Source: Burkholderiales bacterium (GTDB lineage Bacteria; Pseudomonadota; Gammaproteobacteria; Burkholderiales; SG8-41). From it: DNA of 64,000 nucleotides. Where the stretch lies: assembly GCA_035574195.1 (NCBI GenBank), contig DATLZE010000066.1, positions 19,066 through 83,065 on the forward strand. Direction: 5' to 3'. The stretch's first letter is position 1. Each line of letters begins with the position of its first letter. Below are positions 7,465 to 56,276 of this stretch, one piece after another. The position numbers and the translations under genes were made by a program. The notes under the pieces were generated by a model. That model searched no databases and was not told the DNA's origin. It saw only the letters and a program-made list of their open reading frames with translations.

Positions 7465-10595
<3,131 letters not shown>

Positions 10596-10596
10596 G

Positions 10597-11499: not shown

Positions 11500-11503
11500 T
11501 ATT

Positions 11504-11557
11504 GCCGTGCCCGGCAGGCTTGCCGGGCACGGCAGGCCCGCTTCCGCGCGGAGCGGG
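11504..11557 (+). terminator. Two tandem GC-rich hairpins after galU (13-bp perfect stem, then 8-bp stem); no U-tract
   Basis: gccgtgcccggca (11504-11516) pairs with tgccgggcacggc (11521-11533). The second hairpin is cccgcttc...gaagcggg-like at 11537-11557. Confidence 0.5.
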
Positions 11558-11576
11558 CTGCGCAAAGGAGCGCGTC

Positions 11577-11945
11577 GTGGCAAACAAGCTGATGATCGTG
11601 ATGGTCAACACCGATCCCCGGAACGCCGCGGAGCTGGGGGCGCCGTTCTTCCAGGCGACCGTGGCGGCAGCCATGGACTACGAGGTGGAGGTGATCCTGA
11701 CCGCACGCGCCGGAGAGCTCGCGAAGAAGGGTGTGGCCGAGAAGCTCTACGTCAAGGAGGGCTCGGGGAAGAGCGTCTACGACTTCATCAAGGACGCCCA
11801 CGAGGCCGGCGTGCACTTCAAGGTGTGCACGCCCACCCTCGACCTGTGGGGCAACGACCTGATACCCGAGATCGAGGAGACGGTGGGCGGCGCCTACGTG
11901 ATCCAGCAGGCGATGGACGACCAGGTGGTCACCTTCACGTACTGA
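11577..11945 (+). CDS. DsrE/DsrF-like family protein (small sulfur-carrier-like fold, conserved Cys)
   Basis: Only the last 122 codons of ORF 10947..11945 look real. GTG start with AAGGAG 6 nt upstream. Sequence ANKLMIVMVNTDPRNAAELGAPFFQATVAAAMDYEVEVILTARAG...HFKVCTPTLDLWG; the Cys codon is at 11826-11828. Confidence 0.7.
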   Translation: MANKLMIVMVNTDPRNAAELGAPFFQATVAAAMDYEVEVILTARAGELAKKGVAEKLYVKEGSGKSVYDFIKDAHEAGVHFKVCTPTLDLWGNDLIPEIEETVGGAYVIQQAMDDQVVTFTY

Positions 11946-12503
11946 GTGCCGCTCTCCCCCGCACAAGCTCGGCGCGTACTGGAGGAGGCGGAGCTGCTCT
12001 GTTCCGCCGCCGTCGTTGCCGAGGCGATTGCGCGACTTGCGCGCGAAATCTCCGGAGCGCTCGCGGAGAGCTTCCCCGTGGTGCTGTGCGTGATGCGCGG
12101 GAGCGTCATCTTCGCTGGGCAACTGCTGCCGCGGCTGCGCTTCCCCCTCGAGTTCGACTATCTCGATGTGACGCGCTACGGGGACGCGACCCGGGGCGGC
12201 GAGCTTTCCTGGAAAGTGACGCCGGGCACCGCAGTCGCGGGGCGCGTGGTGCTGGTGCTCGACGACGTGCTCGACGAAGGACAGACGCTCGCCGCGATCC
12301 GCGACGCGCTCGTCGCGGCCGGCGCCGAGCGCGTCTATTGCGCGGTGCTGGCGGACAAGCACAAGGACCGCCCGAAGCCGGTGCAGGCAGATTTCGTGGG
12401 AGTGAAGCTGCCCGACCGCTACGTGTTCGGCTGCGGCATGGACGTGAGCGGCGCATGGCGCAACCTCCCGGAAATCTACGCGCTGAAGGGCAGCAAGACG
12501 TAA
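11946..12503 (+). CDS. hpt: Hypoxanthine-guanine phosphoribosyltransferase (6-oxopurine PRTase)
   Basis: 185 aa. GTG start abuts the stop of the preceding gene. PRPP loop VVLVLDDVLDEGQTL; C-terminal FGCGMDVSGAWRNLPEIY. Confidence 0.8.
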   Translation: MPLSPAQARRVLEEAELLCSAAVVAEAIARLAREISGALAESFPVVLCVMRGSVIFAGQLLPRLRFPLEFDYLDVTRYGDATRGGELSWKVTPGTAVAGRVVLVLDDVLDEGQTLAAIRDALVAAGAERVYCAVLADKHKDRPKPVQADFVGVKLPDRYVFGCGMDVSGAWRNLPEIYALKGSKT

Positions 12504-36581: not shown

Positions 36582-40782
<4,201 letters not shown>

Positions 40783-40786
40783 GCGG

Positions 40787-40927
40787 ATGGCTGAGCGGAT
40801 GGATCTCTGCGGCTTCAAGGCGGGACTCGATCAGCCGCTCTTTTTGATGGCGGGGCGAGGCGGACTCGGCGGGCGCGCAGCGCCGGGGGCGGGCAGCCGA
40901 GCGGGGCCCGCGGGTGGGAGCCGATGA
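40787..40927 (+). other. 46-codon mini-ORF made from a duplicated kdsA 5' end plus Gly/Ala/Arg-rich filler; its stop overlaps the kdsA ATG
   Basis: My own translation: [46 protein letters not shown]. The ATG lies 4 nt after the pyrG stop, and the TGA (40925-40927) overlaps ATG 40924-40926. Confidence 0.35.
40799..40854 (+). repeat. Direct repeat copy 1 (56 nt, 54/56 identical to 40933-40988)
   Basis: atggatctctgcggcttcaaggcgggactcgatcagccgctctttttgatggcggg. Confidence 0.9.
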
Positions 40928-41769
40928 GCGCAATGGATCTCTGCGGCTTCAAGGCGGGACTCGATCAGCCGCTTTTTTTGATAGCGGGCCCCTGCGTCAT
41001 CGAGTCCCGGCAGCTCGCGCTCGACACCGCCGGGCAGTTGAAGGAAATCTGCACCGAGCTCGGCATCCCCTTGATCTACAAATCGTCCTATGACAAGGCG
41101 AACAGGACCTCGATTAAATCCTTCCGTGGCTTGGGGATAGAAAAGGGTCTTCAGATTCTTGATGAAGTCCGGAACCAGCTTCGCGTTCCGGTCCTGACCG
41201 ACGTGCACGAGAGCGACGAGATCGAGGCGGCGGCGGCCGTGGCGGACGTGCTGCAGACGCCGGCTTTTCTCTGCCGGCAGACCGATTTCATCTGCGCCGT
41301 GGCCGCCACCGGCAAGCCGGTCAACATCAAGAAAGGCCAGTTCCTCGCCCCGCACGACATGAAGCACGTGGTGGAGAAGGCGAAATCGGCGAGCCGCCGC
41401 GACAACATTCTGGTATGCGAGCGCGGCGCTAGCTTCGGCTATCACAACCTGGTTTCCGACATGCGCTCGCTCGTGATCATGCGCGAGACAGGCTGCCCGG
41501 TGGTATTCGACGCCACCCATTCGGTGCAGCTGCCGGGAGCCAGCGGGGCGGCGAGCGGCGGCCAGCGCGAATTCGTGCCGGTGCTTGCGCGCGCGGCGGT
41601 GGCGAGCGGCATCGCAGGGCTGTTTATGGAGACCCATCCCGATCCGGACAAGGCGCTCTCCGACGGGCCCAACGCCTGGCCGCTGCACCTGATGAAACCG
41701 CTGCTCGAGACGCTGATGGAACTCGACGCCGTGGTCAAGCGCCGCGGGTTCGCGGAAGACCGGCTGTAG
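40924..41769 (+). CDS. kdsA: 3-deoxy-8-phosphooctulonate (KDO-8-P) synthase
   Basis: 281 aa. ...[25 protein letters not shown]...[11 protein letters not shown]. From my recollection of KdsA N-termini, ATG 40933 (MDLCGF) is the likelier true start. Confidence 0.94.
40933..40988 (+). repeat. Direct repeat copy 2, the genuine kdsA 5' coding end
   Basis: atggatctctgcggcttcaaggcgggactcgatcagccgctttttttgatagcggg. Confidence 0.9.
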
Positions 41770-41887
41770 CGCGGCGAGTCCAGAGGCGGCCTCAGCCTCC
41801 CAGATGCAACCGATGAATGCCGATATTTCTCGACGATTCGGGCAGCGAGGAATTTCTCTGTGTTTACCGGTGTTCATCCGCAGCTGA

Positions 41888-43231
<1,344 letters not shown>

Positions 43232-43237
43232 GCCGGC

Positions 43238-43540
43238 GTGAGAGTGCTGGCCCTGTCCCTGATCGCGTTGATCGTGCTGATCCAGTATCCGCTGTGGCTG
43301 GGCAAGGGCGGCTGGTTCCGGGTCTGGGAAGTGGAGCGGCAGGTCCGCGACCAGCGCGAGGTGAACCGCCGCCTGCAGGAGCGCAATCGCGCGCTCGAAG
43401 CCGAGGTGCGCGATCTCAAGGAGGGACTGGAGGCGGTCGAGGAGCGGGCGCGCAGCGAGCTCGGCATGATCCGGCAGGATGAAATCTTTTTCCAGCTCCT
43501 GGAGGGCGCGCCGCGCGCGGGCGGGGGCCCCGTGAAATGA
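43238..43540 (+). CDS. ftsB: Cell division protein FtsB
   Basis: 100 aa. N-terminal TM followed by a leucine-zipper coiled coil; the position after eno is conserved. Confidence 0.88.
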   Translation: MRVLALSLIALIVLIQYPLWLGKGGWFRVWEVERQVRDQREVNRRLQERNRALEAEVRDLKEGLEAVEERARSELGMIRQDEIFFQLLEGAPRAGGGPVK

Positions 43541-44406
43541 AGGTCCCGGAGGCGGTGGTGCTCGACGGAGCGGCTGCCGCCCGCGAAGTCTATTCGCGGT
43601 TGAAAGAGCGCACTGCGGCGCTCGCCCGGCTCGGGGTGCGCCCGGGGCTCGCCGCGGTGCTCGTGGGCGAGAACCCGGCCTCCCGCATCTACCTGCGCAA
43701 CAAGGCGCGCGCCTGCGAGGAAATCGGCGTGCGCTCCGAGCTCCACTCGCTCGAGGCCGGCTGCGCGCAGGAGGCGCTGCGCGCGAAGCTCGAGGCGCTC
43801 AACCGCGATCCCCACGTGCACGGCATCCTGCTCCAGCTCCCGCTGCCGCCGCATCTGGACGCGGCGGCAGCGATGCAGGCGGTGGCACCGGAGAAGGATG
43901 TGGACGGCTTCACCTGGGCGAACCTGGGGGCGCTCGTCGCGGGGCGCCCGCTCTACGAGCCGTGTACGCCCAAAGGCGTGCTCGCGCTGCTCGAGCGCGC
44001 GGGAATTGCGGTCGAAGGCCGCCAGGCGGTCGTGATCGGGCGCAGCACCATCGTCGGCAAGCCGATGGCACTGATGCTGATCGCGCGCGGCGCGACCGTC
44101 ACCGTGTGCCACAGCCGCACGCCCGATCTCGCGGCGCACACGCGGCGCGCCGACATCCTGGTGGTCGCGGCTGGCCGGCCGCGGCTCGTTACCGCCGACA
44201 TGGTCAAGCCAGGTGCGGCGGTGATGGACGTCGGCATCAACCGCATCGAGGGCGGGGGGATCGTCGGCGACGTGGATTTCGCGGGCGTGCGCGGCGTGGC
44301 CGGATGGATCACGCCGGTGCCGGGGGGCGTCGGGCCGATGACGGTCGCGATGGTGGTCGCGAATACGGTGCAGGCCGCGGAACGCGCCGCCCGCGCTCAG
44401 CAGTAG
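43537..44406 (+). CDS. folD: Bifunctional methylenetetrahydrofolate dehydrogenase / methenyl-THF cyclohydrolase
   Basis: 289 aa. VGENPASRIYLRNKARACEEIG, GILLQLPLP, and VIGRSTIVGKPMALML. Confidence 0.95.
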   Translation: MKVPEAVVLDGAAAAREVYSRLKERTAALARLGVRPGLAAVLVGENPASRIYLRNKARACEEIGVRSELHSLEAGCAQEALRAKLEALNRDPHVHGILLQLPLPPHLDAAAAMQAVAPEKDVDGFTWANLGALVAGRPLYEPCTPKGVLALLERAGIAVEGRQAVVIGRSTIVGKPMALMLIARGATVTVCHSRTPDLAAHTRRADILVVAAGRPRLVTADMVKPGAAVMDVGINRIEGGGIVGDVDFAGVRGVAGWITPVPGGVGPMTVAMVVANTVQAAERAARAQQ

Positions 44407-44537
44407 AAGGCGTTCGCGAAGTTGAGCAGCAATTCCGGGCCAAGATAGCTGCGCAGCCCGGCGTAGCTCACCAGCGCGGCGAGCGCAATCAGCATCAGCC
44501 ACATCAGGATGCGCAGCCTCTGGGTCATGCCGCTCAT
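44397..44537 (-). CDS. Hypothetical small membrane protein (46 aa)
   Basis: My own translation: MSGMTQRLRILMWLMLIALAALVSYAGLRSYLGPELLLNFANAFYC*. GC3-rich codons and one TM helix. Its 3' end overlaps the folD 3' end by 10 nt. It is below the ORF-track size cut-off. Confidence 0.35.
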   Translation of the reverse strand: MSGMTQRLRILMWLMLIALAALVSYAGLRSYLGPELLLNFANAFYC

Positions 44538-44613
44538 CGCGCCAGCACTCGCCGGCCACCATTATGGCACATGAATAGAACAGATGGTTATGAGGCCGGC
44601 GCTGAATCCTGGA

Positions 44614-44619
44614 TATAAT
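44614..44619 (+). promoter_or_regulatory. Perfect TATAAT hexamer in an AT-rich patch 29 nt upstream of the large oxidoreductase ORF
   Basis: ggaTATAATtcaacattttactg; there is no good -35. Confidence 0.3.
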
Positions 44620-44647
44620 TCAACATTTTACTGCACCGGAACCCGAT

Positions 44648-47600
44648 TTGACCGCGTTCCCGATCCCCGTCCCGGAATCCGGCCTTGAGTTCGGCGATCT
44701 TTACCAGCGCGAAGGGCTGCTGCGGCTCGACAGGCTGTTCCTCGAGCGACTGAAGCGCGAGGATCCCGCGCTTCACGATCGGCTCGAGCGCGGCCGTGCC
44801 GACCCCGCAGCGCTCGCCCCTCTGCAGGAGTCCGAACTGCTGCTCGAGCTCGCTCCTCGCCTCGAGCGCTTCATCGCGTGGCTCTTCGGCATCGAGGCCG
44901 AAGCGGCTGCGCTCTCCGCCCGCCACCGGGAGCTCGCGCCGCTCTACAGCGTCAGGCGCCAGTTTGTCCAGCGCAAAGCGATGCACCGCTTCACGCCGGC
45001 ACAGGCCGAGAAGCTCGACGGCCCGGCGCTCGCGGCGCGGCTCGAACAATGGATCGGGGAACCGCTCACCGAGCTCGCGTTCGCACGCCACGTCGCCGCC
45101 TGGGAAAAAGACCCTGCGGCGAACGCGGACCAGCTCGAGGCCGCGCTGCAATACGCTGCGTGGGCGGCGCTCACCGAAGCCGGGCGCGCCAGGCATCGCG
45201 CGGGCGTACTGTTCAAGGCGCCGCACAAGCTCGACCCGCAACGCCTCGTTCCCGCGGTCGAAGACCGGAGCCGGGGGTACACCGAGTACCGCTTCGGCCC
45301 GGAGCGGCTGCGCCGGCGCGAAGGTTTTCGCCTGACCGACGCCGGCACCGATCTCGCCGGCGCGCTCGGCGAGGCGCATTACTGCATCTGGTGCCACGAA
45401 CAGGGCAAGGACTCGTGTTCCAAGGGGCTGCTCGAAAAGGGGGCGAAGGGCCGGGGCGCGGCTTCCTTCAAGAAAAGCCCGCTCGGCGTGACGCTCGCGG
45501 GCTGCCCGCTCGAGGAGAAGATCTCCGAGTTCCACAAGGCGAAGGCCGAGGGTCACGCCATCGGCGCGCTCGCCATCATCGTCGTGGACAATCCGATGGT
45601 GGCCGCCACCGGGCACCGCATCTGCAACGACTGCATGAAATCGTGCATCTATCAAAAGCAGGAGCCGGTGAACATCCCGCAGGCCGAGACGAGGACGCTC
45701 AAGGACGTGCTGGAGCTCCCGTGGGGCTTCGAGATCTATTCGCTCCTCACGCGCTGGAACCCCCTCAACCTGCGCGCCCCATATCCCAAGCCTCCGAGCG
45801 GCCGGAGGGTGCTGGTAGCGGGCATGGGTCCGGCTGGCGTCGCGCTCGCGCACTACCTGATGAACGACGGCCATACGGTGGTGGGCGTGGACGGGCTGAA
45901 AATCGAGCCGCTCGCGCCGGAGCTCTCCGGCGTGAACGAGCGGGGCGCGCGCGTGCCGTTTCGCCCCGTGCGCGAGCTGAAGGAGCTCTACGAGGATCTC
46001 GACCGCCGCGTGATGGCGGGTTTCGGCGGAGTCGCCGAATACGGCATCACGGTGCGCTGGGACAAGAACTTCCTCAAGGTGTTGCGGCTGCTGCTCGAGC
46101 GCCGGCGCGAGTTCGCTCTCTTCGGCGGCGTGCGCTTCGGAAGCACGCTCGGCGTCGAGGACGCGTTCGCGCTGGGATTCGACCACGTCGCGCTCGCGAT
46201 CGGAGCCGGCCGCCCGACGGTGCTCGACCTTCCCAACGGGCTCGCCCGCGGCGTGCGCGCCGCTTCGGATTTTCTGATGGCGCTGCAGCTCACCGGCGCG
46301 GCGAGGACGGATTCGGTCGCCAACATGCAGCTGCGGCTGCCGGTAGTGGTGGTGGGCGGCGGGCTCACCGCGATCGATACCGCGACCGAGGCGCTCGCCT
46401 ATTATCCGGTGCAGGTCGAAAAATTCCTGCAGCGCTACGAGCGGCTCTCGCGCAGCCACGGCGAGGCCGCGGCGCGCGTCGCCTGGGACGAGGAGGAGCG
46501 AGAAATCGCCGACGAGTTCCTCGCGCACGCGCGGGCGATCCGCGAGGAGCGCGCCGCCGCCCGCGCCGAAGGGCGCGAGCCGCGGTTGCTCGAGCTGCTG
46601 CAGTCGTGGGGCGGCGTCACCATCGCCTACCGCAAGCGCCTGATTGACAGTCCCTCGTACACGCTCAACCACGAGGAAGTGCACAAGGCGCTGGAGGAGG
46701 GCGTGCGCTTCGCCGAGGGGCTCACGCCCCTCGCGGTCGAGGTGGACGAGCACGGACACGCGCGCGCGCTCAGGGTCTCGGTCCAGCGGCGCGAACCGGA
46801 CGGCAGCTGGGTCGAGACCGCGCGCACGGAGCTGCCGGCACGCACCATCCTGATCGCCGCCGGCACCCAGCCCAATACGGTGCTCGCGCGCGAGAACCCG
46901 TCGCGCTTCAGGCTCGACGGGCGCCACTTTCAGGCCTGCGACGAGGAGGGCAATCCGCTTCCGGTCGAAATGAACGCCGCCAAGCCCGAGGCGGTGCGGG
47001 TGCTGCTGTCGAAGAGCCCCGACGGGCGCTTCCTGAGTTTTTTCGGCGACGTCCATCCCTCCTACTTCGGTAACGTGGTGAAGGCGATCGGCAGCGCGCG
47101 TCAGGGCTATCCCGTCGTGAGCCGTGTGCTCGCGCGCCGGCCGCCGGCTTTCGCGGGAAGCGACGAGGCGTTTTTCTCGCGGCTGAACGAGGAGCTGCGC
47201 GCCACGGTGCACGGCGTGGAGCGCCTCACCCCGCTGATCGTCGAGGTGGTGGTGCGCGCTCCCGCCGCGGCGCGGCGCTTCCGCCCCGGGCAGTTCTATC
47301 GCCTGCAGAACTACGAGGCCCACGCCGCCGGTGCCGAAGGCACGCGCCTCGCCATGGAAGGCATCGCGCTCACCGGCGCCTGGGTAGACCGCGAGCGGGG
47401 GCTCGTCTCCGCCATCGTGCTCGAGATGGGCGGCTCCTCCGACCTCTGCGCGCTGCTCAAGCCGGGCGAGCCGGTAGTGCTGATGGGGCCGACGGGCTCG
47501 CCCACCGAAATTCCCTCGGGCGAGACGGTGGTGCTCGCCGGCGGCGGGCTCGGCAACGCGGTGTTGTTCTCGATCGGGCAGGCGTTGCGCCGCGCCGGCA

Positions 47601-48181
47601 GCCGCGTGCTCTACTTCGCCGGCTACAAGCACATGGCCGACCGCTACAAGGTGCACGAGATCGAGGCGGCGGCCGACGCGGTGGTGTGGTGCTGCGACGA
47701 GGAGCCAGGCTTCATCCCGGGGCGCCCCCAGGACCGGAGCTTCGTCGGCAACATCGTGCAGGGCATGCTCGCCTACGCGAGCGGGGCGCTCGGCGCGCAG
47801 CCGATCCCGTTCGGTGCGGCCGACCGCATCATCGCGATCGGCTCCGACCGCATGATGGCAGCGGTCGCGCGCGCACGGCACGACGTGCTCGCGCCCTATC
47901 TCAAGCCTCACCATTTCGGCATCGGCTCGATCAACTCGCCGATGCAGTGCATGATGAAGGAGATCTGCGCGCAGTGCCTGCAGCCGCACGTGGACCGCGC
48001 GACCGGGAAGGTGAGCTACGTCTTCTCCTGCTTCAACCAGGATCAGCCGCTCGACCAGGTGGACTGGGACGCGCTCGCGGCGCGGCTGCGCCAGAACTCG
48101 GTGCAGGAAAAGCTCACCGCGGAGTGGATAGACCATTGCCTGGTCGCGCTCGGCGCGCGCGCCATGCCACGCAGTATCTAG
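44648..48181 (+). CDS. Large fused Fe-S flavoprotein: unknown N-terminal domain + NfnB/GltD-like module + PyrK/NfnA (FNR-like, [2Fe-2S]) module
   Basis: 1177 aa, TTG start. Cys clusters CIWCHEQGKDSC and CNDCMKSC. Dinucleotide folds VLVAGMGPAGVALA, VVVVGGGLTAIDTA and VVLAGGGLGNAVL. FNR strand RPGQFYRL. C-terminal motif C-x5-C-x2-C-x17-C. Confidence 0.85.
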   Translation: MTAFPIPVPESGLEFGDLYQREGLLRLDRLFLERLKREDPALHDRLERGRADPAALAPLQESELLLELAPRLERFIAWLFGIEAEAAALSARHRELAPLYSVRRQFVQRKAMHRFTPAQAEKLDGPALAARLEQWIGEPLTELAFARHVAAWEKDPAANADQLEAALQYAAWAALTEAGRARHRAGVLFKAPHKLDPQRLVPAVEDRSRGYTEYRFGPERLRRREGFRLTDAGTDLAGALGEAHYCIWCHEQGKDSCSKGLLEKGAKGRGAASFKKSPLGVTLAGCPLEEKISEFHKAKAEGHAIGALAIIVVDNPMVAATGHRICNDCMKSCIYQKQEPVNIPQAETRTLKDVLELPWGFEIYSLLTRWNPLNLRAPYPKPPSGRRVLVAGMGPAGVALAHYLMNDGHTVVGVDGLKIEPLAPELSGVNERGARVPFRPVRELKELYEDLDRRVMAGFGGVAEYGITVRWDKNFLKVLRLLLERRREFALFGGVRFGSTLGVEDAFALGFDHVALAIGAGRPTVLDLPNGLARGVRAASDFLMALQLTGAARTDSVANMQLRLPVVVVGGGLTAIDTATEALAYYPVQVEKFLQRYERLSRSHGEAAARVAWDEEEREIADEFLAHARAIREERAAARAEGREPRLLELLQSWGGVTIAYRKRLIDSPSYTLNHEEVHKALEEGVRFAEGLTPLAVEVDEHGHARALRVSVQRREPDGSWVETARTELPARTILIAAGTQPNTVLARENPSRFRLDGRHFQACDEEGNPLPVEMNAAKPEAVRVLLSKSPDGRFLSFFGDVHPSYFGNVVKAIGSARQGYPVVSRVLARRPPAFAGSDEAFFSRLNEELRATVHGVERLTPLIVEVVVRAPAAARRFRPGQFYRLQNYEAHAAGAEGTRLAMEGIALTGAWVDRERGLVSAIVLEMGGSSDLCALLKPGEPVVLMGPTGSPTEIPSGETVVLAGGGLGNAVLFSIGQALRRAGSRVLYFAGYKHMADRYKVHEIEAAADAVVWCCDEEPGFIPGRPQDRSFVGNIVQGMLAYASGALGAQPIPFGAADRIIAIGSDRMMAAVARARHDVLAPYLKPHHFGIGSINSPMQCMMKEICAQCLQPHVDRATGKVSYVFSCFNQDQPLDQVDWDALAARLRQNSVQEKLTAEWIDHCLVALGARAMPRSI

Positions 48182-48533
48182 CCGCTCGGCAAGGTTGCGG
48201 GGCGCTGTCTGGAGGCGCGGAGGCGGTGCTCCATCGCCTGCCGGCCAGGGTGAACTGGCGCGATCTCTCGATCAGCATGCGGGAGATCCGCTCTCGGGGC
48301 GTGCCCGCGCTGACGAACTCCAGGGCGTCCAGCTCGTGCGCGATGATGACGTGAGGATGCGCGTCGAGGAGCGAGCCGCTCGGGCCGTGCTCGCTGCGCG
48401 GCTAGCCGGCGAACACGCAAGAGACGGCGTTACCTGGCAGCGACTCCGGCGTGAGGAGGGGATCGCCTGCGTGCGTGGACGATCGGACCAGGGCGGGCGT
48501 GCACATGGCGTCGGGAAAAGCCGGAGGCCGCGG

Positions 48534-49862
48534 CTACTCCGCCGCGATCTCCCGCAGCACCGTGGCGAGCGTGCCGGTGAGCTCCTCGATCTCGGCCTCG
48601 CTGATGATGAGCGGCGGCGAGAGCGCAATGATATCTCCCACCACCCGCACGAGGATGCCCCGCTCGAAGGCGCGGGTGAGCGCCCGGTAACCGCGCGCGC
48701 CGGGCCGTCCGGGGGCCGGCGCGAGCTCGACGGCGGCCATCATTCCGAGGTTACGGATATCCGTGACATGCGGCGCCTCGCGCAGAGCGTGCACCGCCTC
48801 CTCGAATCGTTTCTCGAGCGAGCGGGCGCGCTCGAACAGCCGTTCCTCCTCGTAGAGTTCGAGGGTGGCGAGCGCCGCGGCGCACGCGAGCGGATGCCCT
48901 GAATAGGTGTAGCCGTGGAAGAGCTCGATCGAATCCTGCGGTGCGGAGCCGACGATCGTCTCGTAGATCCGCCGGTGCACCGCGACCGCGCCCATCGGCA
49001 CCGCGGCGTTGGTGATGCCCTTCGCCATCGTCACCATGTCGGGGACGATGCCGAAGCGGCTGCAGGCGAAGGGTGCACCCAGCCGCCCGAATCCGGTGAT
49101 GACCTCGTCGAAGATGAGAAGAATGCCGTGCCGATCGCAGATCGCGCGCAGCCGCTCAAGATAGCCCTTGGGCGGCACCAGCACTCCCGTGGAGCCCGCG
49201 ACCGGCTCCACGATCACCGCCGCGATGTTGGCGGCGTCGTGCAGCGCGATGATGCGCGTCTCCAGCTCGTCGGCGAGGTGCGCGCCCCATTCCGGTTGTC
49301 CGCGCGAGAACGAGTTGCGCTCGGGATCGTGCGTATGGGACAGGTGATCCACGTACGGCAGCAGGTTGCCGAACGCCCGGCGATTCGGCTGCATGCCGCC
49401 GACCGAGGTTCCGCCGAAGCCCACGCCGTGGTAGCCGCGCTCGCGCCCGATCAGCCAGCGCCGGTGCCCCTCGCCGCGCGCGCGGTGGTAGGCGAGCGCG
49501 ATCTTCAGCGCGGTATCCACCGACTCCGAGCCCGAGTTGGTGAAGAACACGTGATCGAGCTCGGCAGGCAGCAGCTGTTTGAGCCGCTCGGCGACCTTGA
49601 ACGGGCCCGGGTGCCCCATCTGGAAGATCGGGCCGTAATCGAGCACCTGCGCAGCGGCGCGGATCGCTTCCGTGATCTTCGGGCGGCAGTGCCCTGCGTT
49701 CACGCACCACAGCCCCGCGGTGCCATCGAGGATCCTGCGCCCGTCTTCCGCGACGTAATGCATGTCGCGCGCGGAGACCAGGATGCGCGGCGCGGCCTTG
49801 AACTGGCGGTTGGCGGTGAACGGCATCCAGAACGGCTCGAGGGAATAATCGCGGGGAGGCAT
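48534..49862 (-). CDS. Omega-amino acid--pyruvate aminotransferase (class III, beta-alanine/taurine-pyruvate type)
   Basis: ORF trimmed to MPPRDYSLEPFWMPFTANRQFKAAPR..., giving 442 aa. LWCVNAGH, DEVITGFGRLG, and PLP-Lys MAKG. Confidence 0.88.
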   Translation of the reverse strand: MPPRDYSLEPFWMPFTANRQFKAAPRILVSARDMHYVAEDGRRILDGTAGLWCVNAGHCRPKITEAIRAAAQVLDYGPIFQMGHPGPFKVAERLKQLLPAELDHVFFTNSGSESVDTALKIALAYHRARGEGHRRWLIGRERGYHGVGFGGTSVGGMQPNRRAFGNLLPYVDHLSHTHDPERNSFSRGQPEWGAHLADELETRIIALHDAANIAAVIVEPVAGSTGVLVPPKGYLERLRAICDRHGILLIFDEVITGFGRLGAPFACSRFGIVPDMVTMAKGITNAAVPMGAVAVHRRIYETIVGSAPQDSIELFHGYTYSGHPLACAAALATLELYEEERLFERARSLEKRFEEAVHALREAPHVTDIRNLGMMAAVELAPAPGRPGARGYRALTRAFERGILVRVVGDIIALSPPLIISEAEIEELTGTLATVLREIAAE

Positions 49863-49963
49863 GGCGGCGACCTGTGATCTGCGGCTATTTTGCCAGCGGC
49901 CGCGCGGATCGGCCATACTGCGTCCGGAACAGGCAAGGAGCCGCAAGACCTCGCAACCGGAGC

Positions 49964-50731
49964 ATGCCGCAGACGCCCATCCCCGCATCGAGCCCTCCGG
50001 TGGTGCTCGATAACGTCGCCAAGACCTACGACGGCCAGGTCGCGGTCCGCCCGACCACCCTGAGCGTGGAGGCGCACCGCATCTGCGTGCTGATCGGGCC
50101 GAGCGGCTGCGGCAAGTCCACGTTGCTGCGCATGATCCTGGGGCTGGTGCGCCCGGACCAGGGGCGGGTGTTGATCGCGGGCGAGGAGCTCGATGCGGAA
50201 AACGCGGTGCGGCTGCGCCGCGCGATCGGCTACGTAGTCCAAGACGGGGGTCTTTTTCCGCATCTCACCGCCGGCGACAACGTCACGCTGCTCGCGCGCT
50301 ACCTCGGGCGCGATCCGGCGTGGATCGCCGCGCGGCTCTCCGAGCTCGCCGCGCTGGTACGCCTTCCGGCCGCGGCACTCGCGCGCTATCCGCTGCAACT
50401 CTCGGGGGGGCAGCGCCAGCGCGTGGGCATCATGCGCGCGCTCATGCTCGATCCGCCCCTGCTGCTGCTCGACGAGCCGCTCGGAGCGCTCGATCCGGTG
50501 ACGCGTTTCGAGCTGCAGGAGGAGCTCAAGCAGCTCTTTCTCGAGCTGCGCAAGACGGTGGTGCTGGTCACGCACGACATGAACGAGGCAGCGCACTTCG
50601 GCGATCACATCGTTCTGCTGCGCGCAGGCGCCATCGTGCAGCAGGGGTCGCTGGAGGAGCTGCTCGCGCGGCCGGCCGAGCCCTACGTGCGCGATTTCAT
50701 CCGCGCGCAGCGCTCGACTCTGCCGCAGTAG
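49964..50731 (+). CDS. ABC transporter ATP-binding protein (osmoprotectant/quaternary-amine uptake family)
   Basis: 255 aa. Walker A GPSGCGKST, signature LSGGQRQRV, Walker B LLLLDEP. No CBS tail. Confidence 0.88.
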   Translation: MPQTPIPASSPPVVLDNVAKTYDGQVAVRPTTLSVEAHRICVLIGPSGCGKSTLLRMILGLVRPDQGRVLIAGEELDAENAVRLRRAIGYVVQDGGLFPHLTAGDNVTLLARYLGRDPAWIAARLSELAALVRLPAAALARYPLQLSGGQRQRVGIMRALMLDPPLLLLDEPLGALDPVTRFELQEELKQLFLELRKTVVLVTHDMNEAAHFGDHIVLLRAGAIVQQGSLEELLARPAEPYVRDFIRAQRSTLPQ

Positions 50732-50747
50732 CGGCGACGGGGACGAG

Positions 50748-52298
50748 ATGAACGCGCGATTTCCCTGGGTGCTCGGCGCGCTGCTCACCGGACTGTTCGC
50801 GCCGCCCGCTCCGGCGCAGGACACGATTCGAATCGGCTCCAAGCGCTTCACGGAGTCCTACATCCTGGGCGAGATCGTCACCCGCACGGTGGAGCGGGCG
50901 GGGGAGGCGCGCGCGTCGCACCAGCGCGGGCTCGGCAATACCGCGATCCTCTTCGCCGCCCTCAAAAGCGGCGCCGTGCACATGTATCCGGAATACACCG
51001 GAACCATCGCATTCGAGTTGCTGGGGCTGAAGCGCGCGCCGGAGGACATCGAGGCGCTCAACCGCGAGCTCTCGCCCCACGGCCTGGCCGTCGGCGTGCC
51101 GCTCGGTTTCAACAACACTTATGCGCTCGCCATGGCCGAGACGCGCGCGGCGGCGCTCGGCATACGCCGCATCTCGGATCTCGCGCAGCACGCCGGCCTG
51201 CGGTTCGGGCTGTCCCAGGAATTCATCAACCGCAAGGACGGCTGGCAGGCGCTGCGAGCCGCCTACGGATTCGCGGATACGCAGGTGCAAGGACTCGACC
51301 ACGGGCTCGCCTACGAGGCGCTCGCAGCCGGCCGGGTGGACGTCATCGACGCCTACACTACCGACGCCAAGATCGCCCGCTACCGGCTGCGCGTGCTGGA
51401 GGACGATCGCCGCTTTTTTCCCGCGTACGAGGCCGTGCTCCTCTACCGGGCCGATCTGCCGCAGCGCTATCCGCGGACCTGGCGCGCGCTGCAGTCGCTC
51501 GAACGGCGCATCACCGCCAGCCAGATGATCTCGATGAACGCCGCGGCCGAGCTCGGTGCGGTGCCCTTTTCGAGGATCGCCGATGATTTTCTCTCGGGAC
51601 GGATCGCCGCGGCGGGCCCCGGGGAATCCGGCAGGCGCTCCTTCCTCGAAACCCTGTTCGCCGGGGACTTCTGGCGGCTGACGGGCGAACACCTTCTGCT
51701 GGTGTTCAGCTCGCTCGCGTTGAGCGTCGTCGTCGGCGTCCCGCTCGGCATCCTCGCCGCGCGCGCGCCGCGCGCGCGGCACTTCATCCTGGGCGCGGCA
51801 GGCGTCCTGCAGACCATCCCATCGCTCGCGTTGCTCGCGTTCCTCATCGCGGCGCTCGGCCGCATCGGAACGGCACCTGCCGTGATTGCGCTTTTCCTCT
51901 ACGCGCTGCTGCCGATCGTGCGCAACACCTGCAGCGGGCTCGCCGACATCCCAGCACCGCTGCGCGAGTCCGCCGAGGCGCTGGGTCTGCCCGCTGGCGC
52001 GCGCCTGCGCCTGATCGAACTGCCGCTCGCCGCGCGCTCGATCCTCTCCGGGATCAAAACCTCCGGCGTGATCAACGTCGGCACCGCCACCATCGCCGCC
52101 TTCGTCGGCGCCGGTGGCTACGGCGAGCGCATCGTCGCCGGGCTGGCGGTGAACGACCATGCGCTGCTGCTCGCCGGGGCGCTGCCCGCGGCGGCGATGG
52201 CGCTCGCGATCGAAGGAGCCTTCGGCGCCCTCGACCGCGTCCTGATCTCCCCGGGCCTGCGCGAGCCCGGGGTGACATCCCGAGAGGAGGGGGCATAA
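50748..52298 (+). CDS. Fused ABC substrate-binding (N-terminal, glycine-betaine/choline-type) and permease protein
   Basis: 516 aa. Signal peptide; SBP part IRIGSKRFTESYILGEI...YPEYTGT. The C-terminal approx 210 aa form a multi-TM BPD permease (ALGLPAGARLRLIELPLA EAA-loop). Confidence 0.82.
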   Translation: MNARFPWVLGALLTGLFAPPAPAQDTIRIGSKRFTESYILGEIVTRTVERAGEARASHQRGLGNTAILFAALKSGAVHMYPEYTGTIAFELLGLKRAPEDIEALNRELSPHGLAVGVPLGFNNTYALAMAETRAAALGIRRISDLAQHAGLRFGLSQEFINRKDGWQALRAAYGFADTQVQGLDHGLAYEALAAGRVDVIDAYTTDAKIARYRLRVLEDDRRFFPAYEAVLLYRADLPQRYPRTWRALQSLERRITASQMISMNAAAELGAVPFSRIADDFLSGRIAAAGPGESGRRSFLETLFAGDFWRLTGEHLLLVFSSLALSVVVGVPLGILAARAPRARHFILGAAGVLQTIPSLALLAFLIAALGRIGTAPAVIALFLYALLPIVRNTCSGLADIPAPLRESAEALGLPAGARLRLIELPLAARSILSGIKTSGVINVGTATIAAFVGAGGYGERIVAGLAVNDHALLLAGALPAAAMALAIEGAFGALDRVLISPGLREPGVTSREEGA

Positions 52299-52542
52299 CA
52301 TATCCGCCGCTGCTGACACGGCCATCGCGACGGGGCGGGCGCCGGTTTCGGGGTTGCGCGAGCGCGTGCGTGGTCGGGGGCGCTCCAGGCCGCGGGCGAG
52401 GACTCGCGCCGATCCTGGCCCGCGGGGATGCGCTGGTGGCCGCGGCCGACTCCCTCCCCACAGTGCCCGTGGCGGGACCCCGCCGAGCGGAGCGGACCGT
52501 GCGGCGCGGTTCGGAAGAGGGGGAATAACCTTACCCCGGAGT

Positions 52543-52569
52543 GAACCATTTTTCCCCCGCCCTGTCAGT
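52543..52569 (+). promoter_or_regulatory. Candidate sigmaE/AlgU-type promoter (GAACCA, 16-nt spacer, TCAGT) about 120 nt upstream of rpoE
   Basis: Compare the AlgU/RpoE consensus GAACTT-N16/17-TCtgA; autoregulated rpoE promoters are well known. Confidence 0.3.
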
Positions 52570-52688
52570 GCAGTAACGACCGAGCTTCGCGTATCGGGGC
52601 GCCGGGCGGGCGTAATATACTGTGCGCTTTGTCCGGACGGCCAAGCCGCTCGACTTGGATAACAATTACAAAGTCAGGGACGGGCTCG

Positions 52689-53288
52689 ATGAGCGATCGC
52701 GAAGTCGATCAGCAGTTGGTCGAGCGCGCGCAGCGCGGCGACAAACAGGCGTTCGAGCTGCTGGTCGGCAAGTACCAGCGCAAGCTCGCCCGTCTGCTGT
52801 CGCGCTTCATCCGGGACGCGACCGAGGTCGAGGACGTGACGCAGGAGGCCTTCATCAAGGCCTACCGCGCGCTGCCCACGTTCCGCGGCGACAGCGCGTT
52901 TTACACGTGGCTGTACCGGATCGGCATCAACACCGCCAAGAATTACTTGGTGGCGATGGGGCGGCGCGCGCCGACCACGACCGATATTGACAGTGAAGAG
53001 GCGGAGAGCTTCGAGAATGGCGAGCAGTTGCGCGACCTCAACACGCCGGAGAGCGAGCTGGCGAGCCGGCAGATCGCGGAGACCGTGAACCAAACTCTCG
53101 AAGAGCTGCCAGAGGAGCTGAGGACTGCGATCACATTGCGCGAGATCGAGGGGCTGAGCTACGAGGAAATCGCCAACATCATGAATTGCCCGATCGGCAC
53201 CGTCCGGTCGCGCATATTCAGGGCGCGCGAAGCGATCGCTGCGAAGCTGCGGCCTCTGCTCGGGACCCGCAAGGACAGGAGATGGTGA
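52689..53288 (+). CDS. rpoE: ECF RNA polymerase sigma factor RpoE/AlgU
   Basis: 199 aa. MSDREVDQQLVERAQRGDKQAFELLVGKYQRKL...FYTWLYRIGINTAKN...LREIEGLSYEEIANIMNCPIGTVRSRIFRAREAI. Confidence 0.95.
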   Translation: MSDREVDQQLVERAQRGDKQAFELLVGKYQRKLARLLSRFIRDATEVEDVTQEAFIKAYRALPTFRGDSAFYTWLYRIGINTAKNYLVAMGRRAPTTTDIDSEEAESFENGEQLRDLNTPESELASRQIAETVNQTLEELPEELRTAITLREIEGLSYEEIANIMNCPIGTVRSRIFRAREAIAAKLRPLLGTRKDRRW

Positions 53289-53289
53289 G

Positions 53290-53850
53290 ATGGACAGGAT
53301 TTCGGCGCTGATGGACGGCGAGCTGGACGAACATCAGGCGCGGCGAGAGATCGCCCGTCTGGGACAGGACGAGGAACTCGTCCGGTGCTGGCACATCTTT
53401 CATCTGATCGGCGACGCGATGCGCGGGGAGCCAGTGCTGCTGTCGCAGCACTTCTCTCAGCGGCTGTCCGCACGGCTCGCTGCGGAGCCGACGGTGCTCG
53501 CGCCGCGCCGCCGACCGAGCGCGCGCCTTCTCGCCTATGCGCTATCGGCCGCCGCCTCGCTCTCGGCGGTAGCGCTGGTGGGCTGGGTCGCTCTCTCCGG
53601 CGTCGGGCCCGCTCCCCGCACCGAAGTGGCCAAAGCTTCCGCCCCCGCTCCCACTCCCACCCCTGTTGCAGCGCCCCAGATTCCTGCTCCGCCCGACACC
53701 CACCCGATCCAGCCATCCGGTCTTTCCAGCGAAGGGAAGATGAACGAATACCTGATCGCTCACCAGGAATTCTCGCCCAGCACCGCGATCCAGGGGCTCG
53801 CCCCCTATATCCGCAGCGTGTCGAGCGCGCAGCCGGCGAGGGGGCGTTAG
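53290..53850 (+). CDS. Anti-sigma-E factor, RseA/MucA family
   Basis: 186 aa. N-terminus MDRISALMDGELDE...WHIFHLIGDAMRGE, one central TM, Pro-rich linker, and C-terminal NEYLIAHQEFS motif. Confidence 0.85.
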   Translation: MDRISALMDGELDEHQARREIARLGQDEELVRCWHIFHLIGDAMRGEPVLLSQHFSQRLSARLAAEPTVLAPRRRPSARLLAYALSAAASLSAVALVGWVALSGVGPAPRTEVAKASAPAPTPTPVAAPQIPAPPDTHPIQPSGLSSEGKMNEYLIAHQEFSPSTAIQGLAPYIRSVSSAQPARGR

Positions 53851-53851
53851 C

Positions 53852-54826
53852 GTGAGGGCGTTCTGGCCCCTCCTCCTGCTAGGGGCGGCGGCGCCCGCTC
53901 TCGCCGTCGAGCCGGCGCGGCCCGAAGACGGGCTCGCCTGGCTCAAGAAGATGGCCTCCGCGTCGCGCCGGCTCAACTATTCCGGCGTCTTCGTCTACCA
54001 GCATGCCAACCGCACCGAAACTTCCCGCATCGTCCACTACGTGAACCCGGCAGGCGGCGAGTTCGAAAGGCTGGAAACGCTGGACGGCCCGGCGCGCGAG
54101 GTGATCCGCACCAACGACCAGGTCACTTGCTACCTGCCCGATGCGAAGACGGTGATCATCGAGAAGCGCAATCCGCGCCGCTTCCCCGCGCTGCTGCCCG
54201 AGCAGTTGAATGACGTGTCCGAGAATTATTCCATCCGCCTGGGCTCGCTCGATCGCGTCGCGGGCCACGAGTGCCAGGTGATCGCGCTCGAGCCCAGGGA
54301 CCGGATGCGCTACGGCCACCAATTCTGCGCCGAGGTGATCTCGGGCTTGCCGCTTCGGGCGCGCACCCTCGACGAGAGGCGGATGCCGCTCGAATCCTTC
54401 GCCTTCACCGAGGTGAGGATCGGCGGCAGTTTCAACCGCGACAAGGTCAAATCGCGCTACGCATCGCGCAGCCAGAGCTGGAAGATAGACCGCTCGGAGC
54501 CCGCGGCGTTCGAGGCGCAGCCCGACACCGCCTGGGTGTTGATGCAGCAGCCGCCGGGCTTCAAAAAGCTCATGGAGCTCAAGCGCACCATGACCGGGCG
54601 CGCCGCCGTCGTGAAGCAGATCATCTATTCCGACGGACTCGCCGCGGTCTCGGTGTTCATCGAGCCGCTGCCCGGCGCGCGCCCGGTCCTGGGGCTATCG
54701 CACCAGGGCGCGGTCAATATCTACGCCCGGCCGGTCGCGGATTACATGGTGACGGTGCTCGGAGAGGCGCCTGCCGCGACCGTGAAACAGATCGCTGACT
54801 CCCTGGAATTCAGAGGCACACGGTAG
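53852..54826 (+). CDS. rseB: Sigma-E regulatory protein RseB/MucB
   Basis: 324 aa, GTG start. Signal peptide, then ...LAWLKKMASASRRLNYSGVFVYQH. Confidence 0.88.
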   Translation: MRAFWPLLLLGAAAPALAVEPARPEDGLAWLKKMASASRRLNYSGVFVYQHANRTETSRIVHYVNPAGGEFERLETLDGPAREVIRTNDQVTCYLPDAKTVIIEKRNPRRFPALLPEQLNDVSENYSIRLGSLDRVAGHECQVIALEPRDRMRYGHQFCAEVISGLPLRARTLDERRMPLESFAFTEVRIGGSFNRDKVKSRYASRSQSWKIDRSEPAAFEAQPDTAWVLMQQPPGFKKLMELKRTMTGRAAVVKQIIYSDGLAAVSVFIEPLPGARPVLGLSHQGAVNIYARPVADYMVTVLGEAPAATVKQIADSLEFRGTR

Positions 54827-54893
54827 CGCTCGCACCGCTTGCCGCGCATTTTCCGCACTCGAACGACATCCCCGCTGCACACGAGGTTTCTAC

Positions 54894-56276
54894 ATGCTGA
54901 AGCGACTGGCTTTCGCGCTGTTCCTGTTGCCGCCGCTCGCGGCGCCGGCCCAGCTTCCGGACTTCACCGAGCTGGTGGAGAAACAAGGGCCGGCTGTCGT
55001 CAACATCAGCACCACGCAGTCGGTGCGCAACCCCCTCTTTCCGCAAATCCCCAACTTGCAGGAGGACGATCCCTTCTACGAGTTCTTCCGGCGCTTCATG
55101 CCCAATCCGGGGCCGCGCGAGTTCCAGTCGCACTCCCTGGGCTCGGGCTTCATCATCAGCGCGGACGGCTATATCCTCACCAACGCCCACGTGGTGGACG
55201 CTGCCGACGAGATCACGGTCAAATTGAACGACAAGCGCGAGTTCAAGGCCAAGGTGATCGGCGCCGACCGCCGCACCGACATCGCGCTGCTCAAGATCGA
55301 CGCGACCGGCCTCCCCGCGGTGAGATTCGGCGATCCCAACAAGCTCAAAGTCGGAGAGTGGGTTGTCGCGATCGGCTCGCCGTTCGGCTTCGAGAACACC
55401 GTAACCGCCGGCATCGTCAGCGCCAAGGGCCGCTCGCTGCCGCAGGAGAACTACGTCCCCTTCATCCAGACCGACGTCGCCGTCAACCCTGGCAATTCCG
55501 GCGGGCCGCTGTTCAACTTGAAAGGCGAGGTGGTCGGCATCAATTCGCAGATCTACAGCCGCACCGGCGGCTTCATGGGGCTTTCGTTTGCGATTCCGAT
55601 TGATGTCGCGAACGACATCGCGCAGCAGCTGCGCACTACCGGCAAGGTCACGCGCGGGCGCATCGGCGTGGTGATCCAGCCGGTCACCAAGGAGCTCGCC
55701 GACGGCTTCGGGCTGGCGCGCCCGCAGGGCGCCCTCGTCAACTCGGTGGAGAAGGGCGGACCGGCGGACAAGGCGGGCATCGAGCCGGGCGACGTCATCC
55801 TGCGCTTCGACGGCAAACCGGTGAATTCCTCCGAAGACTTGCCCCGCATCGTCGCGGCCACCAAGCCCGGCAGCCGTGTCGCGATCCAACTCTGGCGCAA
55901 CAAGGCTGCGCGCGAGGTGCAGGTGACGGTCGCCGAGATGCCCGACGACCGGGCGGCGCGCCAGGCGCGCCGCGGCGGCAAGCCGCCCGCCGCGGCCGCG
56001 AGCCAGTACGGGCTGACGCTCTCCGACCTCAGCGAGGCGCAGAAAAACGAGCTCAAGATCCAGGGCGGGGTGCTGGTCGAGAACGCCCAGGGAGCCGCGG
56101 CGCGCGCCGGGGTGCGGCGCGGCGACGTGATCCTGGCGATCAACAACCAGGACGTGAAGTCGGTCGAGCAGTTCAACCAGATGATGGCGCAGTTCGAAAA
56201 GGGGCGGATCGTGGCGCTGCTGATCCGGCGCGGATCGAACTCGCTCTACGTGCCGTTCCGCGTCGAGGCCGGCTGA
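54894..56276 (+). CDS. degP: Periplasmic serine endoprotease DegP/DegQ (MucD-like), two PDZ domains
   Basis: 460 aa. Catalytic triad context TNAHVV...DIALLKI...GNSGGPL. Confidence 0.92.

Follow-up and report, generated by a model that had tools for sequence, protein, structure and literature searches.

What kind of enzyme is encoded by the long open reading frame (ORF) that lies between folD and an aminotransferase gene in a 64,000-nucleotide stretch of a Burkholderiales genome (contig DATLZE010000066.1; the whole stretch is called the window hereafter), and is its architecture as new as it first appeared? An initial annotation of this DNA had described a stand-alone 1177-residue fusion, in which a domain without recognisable motifs precedes an NfnB/GltD-like redox module (the B-module) and an NfnA/PyrK-like one (the A-module), and had considered the combination novel. 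We found that the protein is a member of a widespread and catalogued, yet functionally uncharacterised, family. As for its activity, we consider it about an even chance (roughly 0.5) that it works as a single-polypeptide Nfn-type oxidoreductase, with the B-module first, which would interconvert the reducing power of reduced nicotinamide adenine dinucleotide phosphate (NADPH), nicotinamide adenine dinucleotide (NAD(H)) and ferredoxin.

A widespread family under legacy names

The 1177-residue fusion is a genuine gene and not an assembly artefact. The ORF contains no internal stop and is preceded by no further in-frame start codon upstream, and a protein deposited at NCBI as “FAD-dependent oxidoreductase” (FAD, flavin adenine dinucleotide) from a Burkholderiales bacterium metagenome-assembled genome (P0001) is identical to it (100% identity over 100% of the 1177 residues), so the deposited annotation has the same start. 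The GC content at third codon positions (GC3) amounts to 0.84, 0.90 and 0.93 across the three parts of the protein, compared with 0.68 for the GC content of the window, and the entire frame thus looks coding, in agreement with the initial annotation, which had read one uninterrupted GC3-rich ORF here. That annotation had also left room for a frameshift or an assembly join between separate genes; this alternative is contradicted by the length of about 1176 residues, with full-length coverage, in all 120 homologues listed, and by the single uninterrupted match that the fused gene gives in each of the 80 genome loci retrieved.

Among the NCBIfam models the best match is PRK06567 (NF005128), where residues 14-724 align with profile positions 8-693, N-terminal region included, at 790.9 bits, whereas 1072 bits are required by the equivalog cut-off. 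The PRK06567/RP005 family has the same overall architecture, with its N-terminal domain, but the model comprises 1031 positions, while our protein belongs to a longer subfamily (about 1176 residues) in which the NAD motif of the A-module is intact. With one genome scanned for each GTDB species, stretches encoding the protein were confirmed in at least 599 species. The matches listed include Betaproteobacteria (Nitrosomonas, Nitrosovibrio, Nitrotoga, Gallionella, Burkholderiales and Casimicrobiaceae), Alphaproteobacteria (Stellaceae, Reyranella and Xanthobacteraceae), Acidobacteriota, Planctomycetota (Paludisphaera soli), Binatia and Nevskia; further members were found in Oceanibacterium and in the amoeba symbiont Paracaedimonas. 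The family has also been reported from nearly all Rickettsiales as a “chimeric GltD-UbiB” signature that is kept in reduced genomes (PMC3641634), and this retention, along with the broad distribution over GTDB species, fits a housekeeping redox role. The novelty claimed for the architecture must consequently be given up, since it is already present in NCBIfam (PRK06567), in Pfam (PF27156) and in three papers, and the protein itself is in NCBI. The accompanying claim that no characterised orthologue exists agrees with the literature, in which we found no experimental characterisation of any family member and annotation-level mentions only.

Large as the family is (a search with the N-terminal domain alone returned 1255 representatives of 50%-identity clusters at E < 1e-3), it still goes by legacy names, among them “glutamate synthase beta/2-polyprenylphenol hydroxylase” and “FAD-dependent oxidoreductase”. 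It is barely credible that the first of these describes the enzyme, as a glutamate synthase small subunit or a 2-polyprenylphenol hydroxylase, or that the gene is an artefactual fusion of two or three others. The names are inherited from PRK06567 and COG0493+COG0543, and they have been used in the literature, where the Ehrlichia orthologue is claimed to convert glutamine to glutamate in an organism in which the orthologue is present and glutamate synthase (GOGAT) absent (PMC4251998); we regard this claim as an example of how misleading the legacy annotations are. The true GltD models were rejected on their scores (TIGR01317 at 42 and TIGR01318 at 50.7 bits, against cut-offs of 447.7 and 482.95), no gltB was found among the neighbouring genes scanned (36582-56276), and nothing in the protein resembles a ubiquinone hydroxylase. 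An artefactual fusion, for its part, is hard to reconcile with a length and continuity that recur across several phyla. Such names are therefore unsuitable for metabolic reconstruction.

A closer precedent is offered by the B-then-A fused Nfn homologues known as “Pattern C”, which are uncharacterised and occur in Proteobacteria and Actinobacteria (Liang et al. 2019, PMC6405883). These likewise carry C-terminal a-FAD, NAD and [2Fe-2S] sites. The NCBIfam model PRK12779 (944 residues) probably corresponds to Pattern C, and the A-module of our protein aligns to its positions 653-936. Our protein is longer than Pattern C by about 230 residues, which matches the size of the N-terminal domain, and Pattern C may thus lack this domain.

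Modular anatomy and conserved cofactor sites

The tripartite anatomy that had been read from the translation was borne out, with borders given by Pfam and NCBIfam and by a confident AlphaFold2 model of the whole protein (mean predicted local distance difference test score, pLDDT, of 88; predicted template-modelling score, pTM, of 0.89), built on an alignment of 17 diverse homologues. The resulting features are collected in Table 1. Both redox modules share their folds with Nfn. In Foldseek searches against the PDB, the B-module matched NfnI-L (5jfc_L) with a template-modelling (TM) score of 0.79, Xfn (5vj7_A) with 0.80 and Thermotoga maritima NfnB (4ylf_B) with 0.76, and the A-module matched NfnI-S (5jca_S) with 0.89 and T. 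maritima NfnA (4ylf_A) with 0.82; the N-terminal half of dihydropyrimidine dehydrogenase (DPD) came after the Nfn entries. The same proteins were returned by sequence, namely NfnA and NfnB of T. maritima, NfnI-S and NfnI-L of P. furiosus, and Xfn (5jca_L, 5vj7_A and 4ylf_B were aligned), with 4ylf_A matching the A-module at E = 5e-13. Profile scores place the B-module nearer to NfnB/SudA (96 bits with TIGR01316) than to true GltD, and the A-module nearer to NfnA/SudB (NF004862, 65 bits) than to PyrK (NF000799, 29.5 bits); the A-module also matches the A-parts of PRK12778, PRK12779 and PRK12775. The C-terminal third is thus of the NfnA/SudB/PyrK-like kind that had been proposed for it. PyrK itself was rejected as an identity, as its model scores far below the cut-off of 314 bits and the module is fused here to an NfnB-like part.

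Table 1. Position of the gene, of the parts of its product and of the candidate promoter element in the window
Feature	Position	Strand	Remarks
Complete coding sequence	44648..48181	+	TTG start, 1177 residues, stop codon included
RP005_N helical domain	44648..45202	+	Residues 1-185; 11 helices between residues 15 and 182
Conserved extended linker to the Fe-S domain	45203..45352	+	Residues 186-235; mostly non-helical, two short strands (model)
Helical domain with two predicted [4Fe-4S] clusters	45353..45772	+	Residues 236-375; Pfam Fer4_20 at 284-347
FAD and NADPH Rossmann domains, NfnB/GltD-like	45773..47167	+	Residues 376-840; Pfam Pyr_redox_2 at 387-615
Family-specific insertion of about 66 residues in the NADPH domain	46385..46582	+	Residues 580-645; helices 572-604 and 615-641 (model)
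NfnA/SudB/PyrK-like module	47180..48178	+	Residues 845-1177; FAD-binding beta-barrel, NAD(P)-binding domain, [2Fe-2S] lobe
[2Fe-2S] motif P-M-Q-C1101-x5-C1107-x2-C1110-x17-C1128	47939..48037	+	Four Cys invariant in 17 homologues
TATAAT hexamer, candidate -10 element	44614..44619	+	Read from sequence; 29 nt 5' of the TTG start

Every motif listed in the initial annotation was found at or adjoining the place given for it. In the cluster domain, Cys residues stand at 246, 249, 257, 326, 329 and 333, to which C286, in a G-C-P motif, has to be added; the first cluster region reads Y-C246-x2-C249-H-x6-C257 followed by a 28-residue insertion and C286-P, and the second C326-x2-C329-x3-C333-x13-E347. 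The first dinucleotide fold is marked by VLVAGMGPAGVALA (residues 388-401), which holds the FAD motif G392-M-G-P-A-G397, and the second by VVVVGGGLTAIDTA (residues 566-579), which holds the NADPH motif G570-G-G-L-T-A-I-D577; they are followed by Y661-R-K-R, a 2'-phosphate motif, and by G800-D801, the “GD” motif. The charged insert, in which EKFLQRYERL begins at residue 591, belongs to the helical insertion of Table 1, which is modelled with a pLDDT of about 90, is skipped in NfnB alignments (query position 583 passes directly to 656) and is present but variable throughout the family. In the A-module, RPGQFYRL occupies residues 879-886 and VVLAGGGLGNAVL residues 961-973, with the NAD(P)-type motif G966-G-G-L-G-N-A; in the model, the [2Fe-2S] lobe is followed by a long helix (1151-1167), and the last Cys of the [2Fe-2S] motif aligns with the cluster region of T. 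maritima NfnA. The N-terminus shows no signal-peptide-like or hydrophobic stretch, so that the protein is, as far as its sequence tells, cytoplasmic and soluble.

Conservation was judged from a cleaned alignment of 17 full-length homologues that are 43-88% identical. All Fe-S Cys proved invariant, the initial annotation having named a lack of conservation of these motifs as a refuting outcome: in the B-module C246, C249, C257, C286, C326, C329 and C333, together with E347, are the same in 17 of 17 sequences, and so are the four Cys of the A-module. Presumably one cluster is held by C246/C249/C257/C333 and the other by C286/C326/C329/E347, an assignment that is likely by analogy with DPD and NfnB. 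The FAD motif GxGPxG is invariant as well, and the NADPH motif GxGLxAxD, Y661-R and G800-D801 are mostly so, a few positions varying in one or two members. Beyond the ligands, Y245 is invariant, and so are H250, K254 and D255, which adjoin the first cluster motif. E347 aligns with the Glu of the “ER” motif of NfnB (PMC6405883). Published NfnB cluster motifs read RCx2Cx4Cx3CPV and GRVCPQExQCx3Cx13Gx2ER (PMC6405883); their counterparts here are YCx2Cx7Cx28CPL and GHRICx2Cx3Cx13ETR, all ligand positions being present and invariant but differently spaced, with C-x2-C in place of C-x5-C in the second. By its motifs the protein is predicted to hold the cofactors of Nfn: a pair of [4Fe-4S] clusters, a single [2Fe-2S] cluster, and sites for NADPH (with YR(K/R)) and for NAD (glycine-rich). 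It differs from Nfn in being one polypeptide in B-then-A order, in its additional N-terminal domain and linker of about 235 residues, and in the 28-residue and 66-residue insertions in the first cluster motif and in the NADPH domain, respectively.

The N-terminal domain is the part that had been called unknown. It is already catalogued as Pfam PF27156 (RP005_N), named after RP005 of Rickettsia prowazekii, which has precomputed matches on P0001 and on homologues; our local Pfam search of the window protein gave no match for it. It has, on the other hand, no match among known folds: Foldseek with residues 1-240 modelled alone returned nothing significant from the PDB (best E = 4, TM < 0.2), Foldseek with the domain returned nothing significant from the viral structures of BFVD, and a profile search with the domain against PDB sequences gave no match. 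The domain is all-alpha, its eleven helices being modelled mostly with a pLDDT above 90, and its charge is mildly acidic and unremarkable. Invariant residues among the 17 homologues are F31, F80, F106 and W172 in the domain and L188, F189, P192, R224, G226 and F227 in the linker, where D196 is nearly invariant. No His, Cys or acidic residue occurs among the invariant positions of residues 1-240, which argues against a metal or heme site there. The domain keeps its place, too, as all 16 near-complete proteins among the domain matches (1014-1195 residues) carry it N-terminally, while the shorter matches look like fragments.

It is worth considering at this point an old suggestion made for the Anaplasmataceae orthologues ECH_0778, APH_0545 and NSE_0661, namely that of a flavohemoglobin (PMC1366493), which would make the protein a heme-containing enzyme that detoxifies nitric oxide or peroxide. 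Residues 246-250 (C-I-W-C-H; window 45383-45397) formally constitute a heme-c CXXCH motif and are invariant at C246, C249 and H250, and the general layout, an all-alpha N-terminal domain with, eventually, an FNR-like FAD/NAD C-terminus, is reminiscent of such proteins. Nevertheless, the CXXCH sits inside the first GltD/NfnB-type Fe-S motif, and residues 1-240 lack an invariant His. Covalent attachment of heme c is periplasmic, and the window protein has no signal peptide. A globin was ruled out because the fold and profile searches with the N-terminal domain matched neither a globin nor any other PDB fold. Altogether we consider a flavohemoglobin extremely improbable, and the invariant CXXCH probably explains the comment “heme binding site / putative flavohemoglobin” once attached to ECH_0778 (PMC1366493).

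One relative deserves mention on account of this domain. P0216, a protein of 1079 residues encoded outside the window and devoid of the C-terminal module, carries in-frame insertions within RP005_N with Gly/Glu/Pro-rich repeats and a stretch, beginning KKLWYYLRGRKLGGFRFRRQSPIGSYIADFVCPEAKLVIELDGEQHG, that resembles a DUF559/Vsr-type endonuclease. The insertions may represent a mobile-element insertion or an assembly artefact.

A putative Nfn-type enzyme weighed against its rivals

If the protein acts as an Nfn-type enzyme, a reaction path can be proposed for it. NADPH would bind to the second Rossmann domain of the B-module (GGGLTAID and YRKR), the YRKR contacting its 2'-phosphate as in NfnB (PMC6405883), and would exchange hydride with the FAD of the same module. 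From this flavin, electrons would take two branches. One would pass by way of both [4Fe-4S] clusters to a one-electron carrier outside the protein, most likely ferredoxin, while the second would cross the Cys4 [2Fe-2S] cluster and reach the flavin/NAD(H) site in the C-terminal module, so that NADPH, NAD(H) and ferredoxin would be interconverted in an aerobic proteobacterium. RP005_N and the linker would shape or gate a docking site for the partner where the [4Fe-4S] branch ends. This step, the weakest of the scheme, is proposed because the domain and linker are fused directly to the Y245-C246 motif and conserved residues cluster at the junction.

Gene neighbourhood was inspected in 79 loci, whose ORFs were called and clustered over 8-kb flanks. 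In 4 Burkholderiales loci a 107-residue 7Fe ferredoxin (Fer4 + DUF3470) is encoded directly upstream on the same strand; the short gaps (about 17-58 nt) and a downstream gene on the opposite strand make the pair look like a two-gene unit. In 5 loci, four of Nitrosomonadaceae (L017, L020, L022 and L075) and one of Nitrotoga (L039), pntAA-pntAB-pntB, encoding the proton-translocating NAD(P) transhydrogenase, lie downstream on the same strand, directly adjacent in 4 of them and one gene further on in L020. Though drawn from single lineages, these adjacencies point to a role in ferredoxin and pyridine-nucleotide balance. Other neighbours are of a different kind. L017 (Nitrosovibrio) has genes resembling cysI, cysH, cysD and cysN upstream, judged from sequence alone, and in these nitrifiers the enzyme might be a source of electrons or of NADPH for assimilatory sulfite reduction. 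Genes of molybdenum hydroxylases of the xanthine dehydrogenase family adjoin the orthologue or lie near it in 5 loci, i.e. in L084 (Oceanibacterium hippocampi, 8500-12107, a FAD_binding_5 subunit and a fused Fer2/MoCoBD subunit) and, as cluster 36, in L016, L027, L035 and L077. As for folD and the class-III aminotransferase, they adjoin the gene in the window's own clade only (6-7 loci), and are therefore uninformative on function. In the absence of any conserved neighbourhood the gene behaves as a stand-alone housekeeping gene.

A further neighbour, pyrD (DHO_dh), raises the question of a link to pyrimidine metabolism, in which the protein would act like DPD/PreT or PyrK and link NAD(P)H by electron transfer to a dehydrogenase of dihydroorotate or dihydropyrimidine. 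There are structural grounds for it: the N-terminal half of DPD is GltD-like and contains two [4Fe-4S] clusters together with FAD and NADPH, as is predicted for our protein, and the FNR-like fold of PyrK, with its Cys4 [2Fe-2S] site at the C-terminal end, recurs in the A-module. Moreover, pyrD adjoins the gene in 5 loci, in 4 of them immediately upstream and in the same orientation, and pyrG lies 4 kb upstream in the window. Yet the polypeptide contains no PyrD/PreA-like TIM barrel, and hence not the catalytic domain of these systems, the structural match to DPD concerns its generic GltD-like half, and the pyrD adjacency is limited to 5 of the 79 loci, all from related Betaproteobacteria. The adjacent pyrD product, of about 340 residues, we take from its length to be of the quinone-linked class 2, which needs no PyrK. 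A pyrimidine link is, accordingly, very unlikely.

Several observations weigh against an Nfn-type function, and they have to be set beside the similarities in fold and cofactor motifs. In NfnA, the [2Fe-2S] motif is DGTGMCGxCRx10CV, an Asp(Cys)3 site whose Asp gives the cluster an unusually high potential (PMC6405883); our protein has an invariant Cys at the Asp position, hence a Cys4 site that departs from the Nfn motif. The a-FAD strand of NfnA, ERxPxT (PMC6405883), is replaced by E904-G-I-A-L-T909, in which Glu and Thr are kept and Arg and Pro lost, a loss of the EGIALT type that is also seen in the family consensus. In the first cluster motif the four Cys are kept with spacers of x7 and x28 instead of x4 and x3. 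The window protein and its clade have an intact A-module motif GGGLGNA (in the region of residues 960-974), while 7 of the 17 homologues, mostly shorter members (1014-1135 residues), show GxGxGNA in degenerate or deleted form, the [2Fe-2S] Cys always being kept. NAD(H) binding at this site is therefore not a core function of the whole family, which agrees with the remark that Wolbachia orthologues are without the NAD domain (PMC1366493); by its sequences, the family seems to comprise a long subfamily, able to bind NAD, and a short one whose site is degenerate. The neighbourhood evidence has its own limits, as no neighbour is conserved, the commonest one occurring in 11 of the 79 loci only, and as the ferredoxin and pntAB links are each confined to one lineage. 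In the window no ferredoxin gene adjoins the gene; a tblastn search of the window with an FdxA-type ferredoxin, the query being the first 70 residues of that from locus L026 plus an approximate tail, gave no match, which with such a query is a weak negative. Finally, Nfn-type bifurcation is rare in aerobes (PMC6405883), and the family, unlike Nfn, is found in aerobic lineages. The Cys4 site, the altered a-FAD strand and the degenerate NAD site of 7 members thus leave bifurcation unproven, and the scaffold, Nfn-type as it appears to be from its motifs, ought not to be classed among the canonical bifurcating Nfn enzymes.

Much of the same evidence would suit a non-bifurcating NADPH-dependent reductase, whose invariant core, leading from NADPH over FAD to two [4Fe-4S] clusters, would deliver electrons to a specific substrate or partner held by RP005_N, the C-terminal module serving only as an internal [2Fe-2S]/flavin relay or as a second entry or exit, like PyrK in class 1B dihydroorotate dehydrogenase. 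Here the PyrK-like Cys4 cluster would be expected, the contrast between a degenerate A-module motif and invariant B-module motifs would find an explanation, and the aerobic hosts would pose no difficulty. The invariant residues that are not ligands (H250, K254, D255, R224, G226 and F227) cluster at the junction of the N-terminal domain with the first cluster and would fit a dedicated site, and the variable neighbours (molybdenum hydroxylase genes, cysI-H-D-N and pyrD) could accompany a reductase with a specific substrate. What speaks against such a reductase is the intact GGGLGNA of the window protein and its clade. Furthermore, the invariant residues of RP005_N are aromatic or hydrophobic and give no hint of a polar or metal-binding catalytic site, and no partner gene is conserved. 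We therefore hold a specific reductase to be possible but doubtful.

Perhaps the Nfn-type reading can be carried further. The RP005 family could be an unrecognised class of single-chain, flavin-based bifurcating or confurcating enzymes in aerobes, in which RP005_N, as a new fold, builds or gates a low-potential ferredoxin site; in Rickettsiales, nitrifiers, soil Burkholderiales, Acidobacteriota and Planctomycetota it would then be the main route to reduced ferredoxin, for Fe-S biogenesis and other reactions, or to a balance of NADH, NADPH and ferredoxin. This wider proposal we regard as unlikely. Whichever of these readings applies, the protein combines both halves of the best-understood bifurcating enzyme with a domain that lacks a solved structural relative, and does so in aerobes, where Nfn-type chemistry is not expected. 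If it acts as Nfn does, flavin-based bifurcation would extend to aerobic bacteria and ferredoxin reduction in some of the hosts would be explained; if it does not, its departures from Nfn (a Cys4 site, a changed a-FAD strand and an NAD site that can be dispensed with) would show how the scaffold can be retuned.

The gene and its surroundings in the window

The neighbours named in the initial annotation and the TATAAT hexamer in an AT-richer patch were all found at the locus. Upstream, ppsA, pyrG, kdsA, eno and folD follow one another on the + strand, folD occupying 43537-44406 and being separated from the gene by an intergenic region of 241 nt with 57.7% GC. Downstream, the class-III aminotransferase gene (48537-49988) lies on the - strand and is convergent with the gene, which must therefore be the last of any + strand transcript; for the same reason monocistronic transcription is plausible. 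A consensus scan called neither a full sigma-70-like promoter nor a terminator around the gene.

Two further observations concern the surrounding DNA. Between folD and the gene, a minus-strand ORF of 43-46 residues (about 44405-44545) encodes a hydrophobic product (MSGMTQRLRILMWLMLIALAALVSYAGLRSYLGPELLLNFANAFYC) and overlaps the folD stop codon at its end; it may encode a small membrane protein or be no more than a chance ORF of GC-rich DNA. On the far side of the aminotransferase gene, a glycine-betaine-type ATP-binding cassette (ABC) transporter (49874-52298) is followed at 52629-56276 by an rpoE-like extracytoplasmic function (ECF) sigma factor, a MucB/RseB homologue and a DegP-like protease, a typical envelope-stress cluster that is ordinary and unrelated to the gene discussed here.

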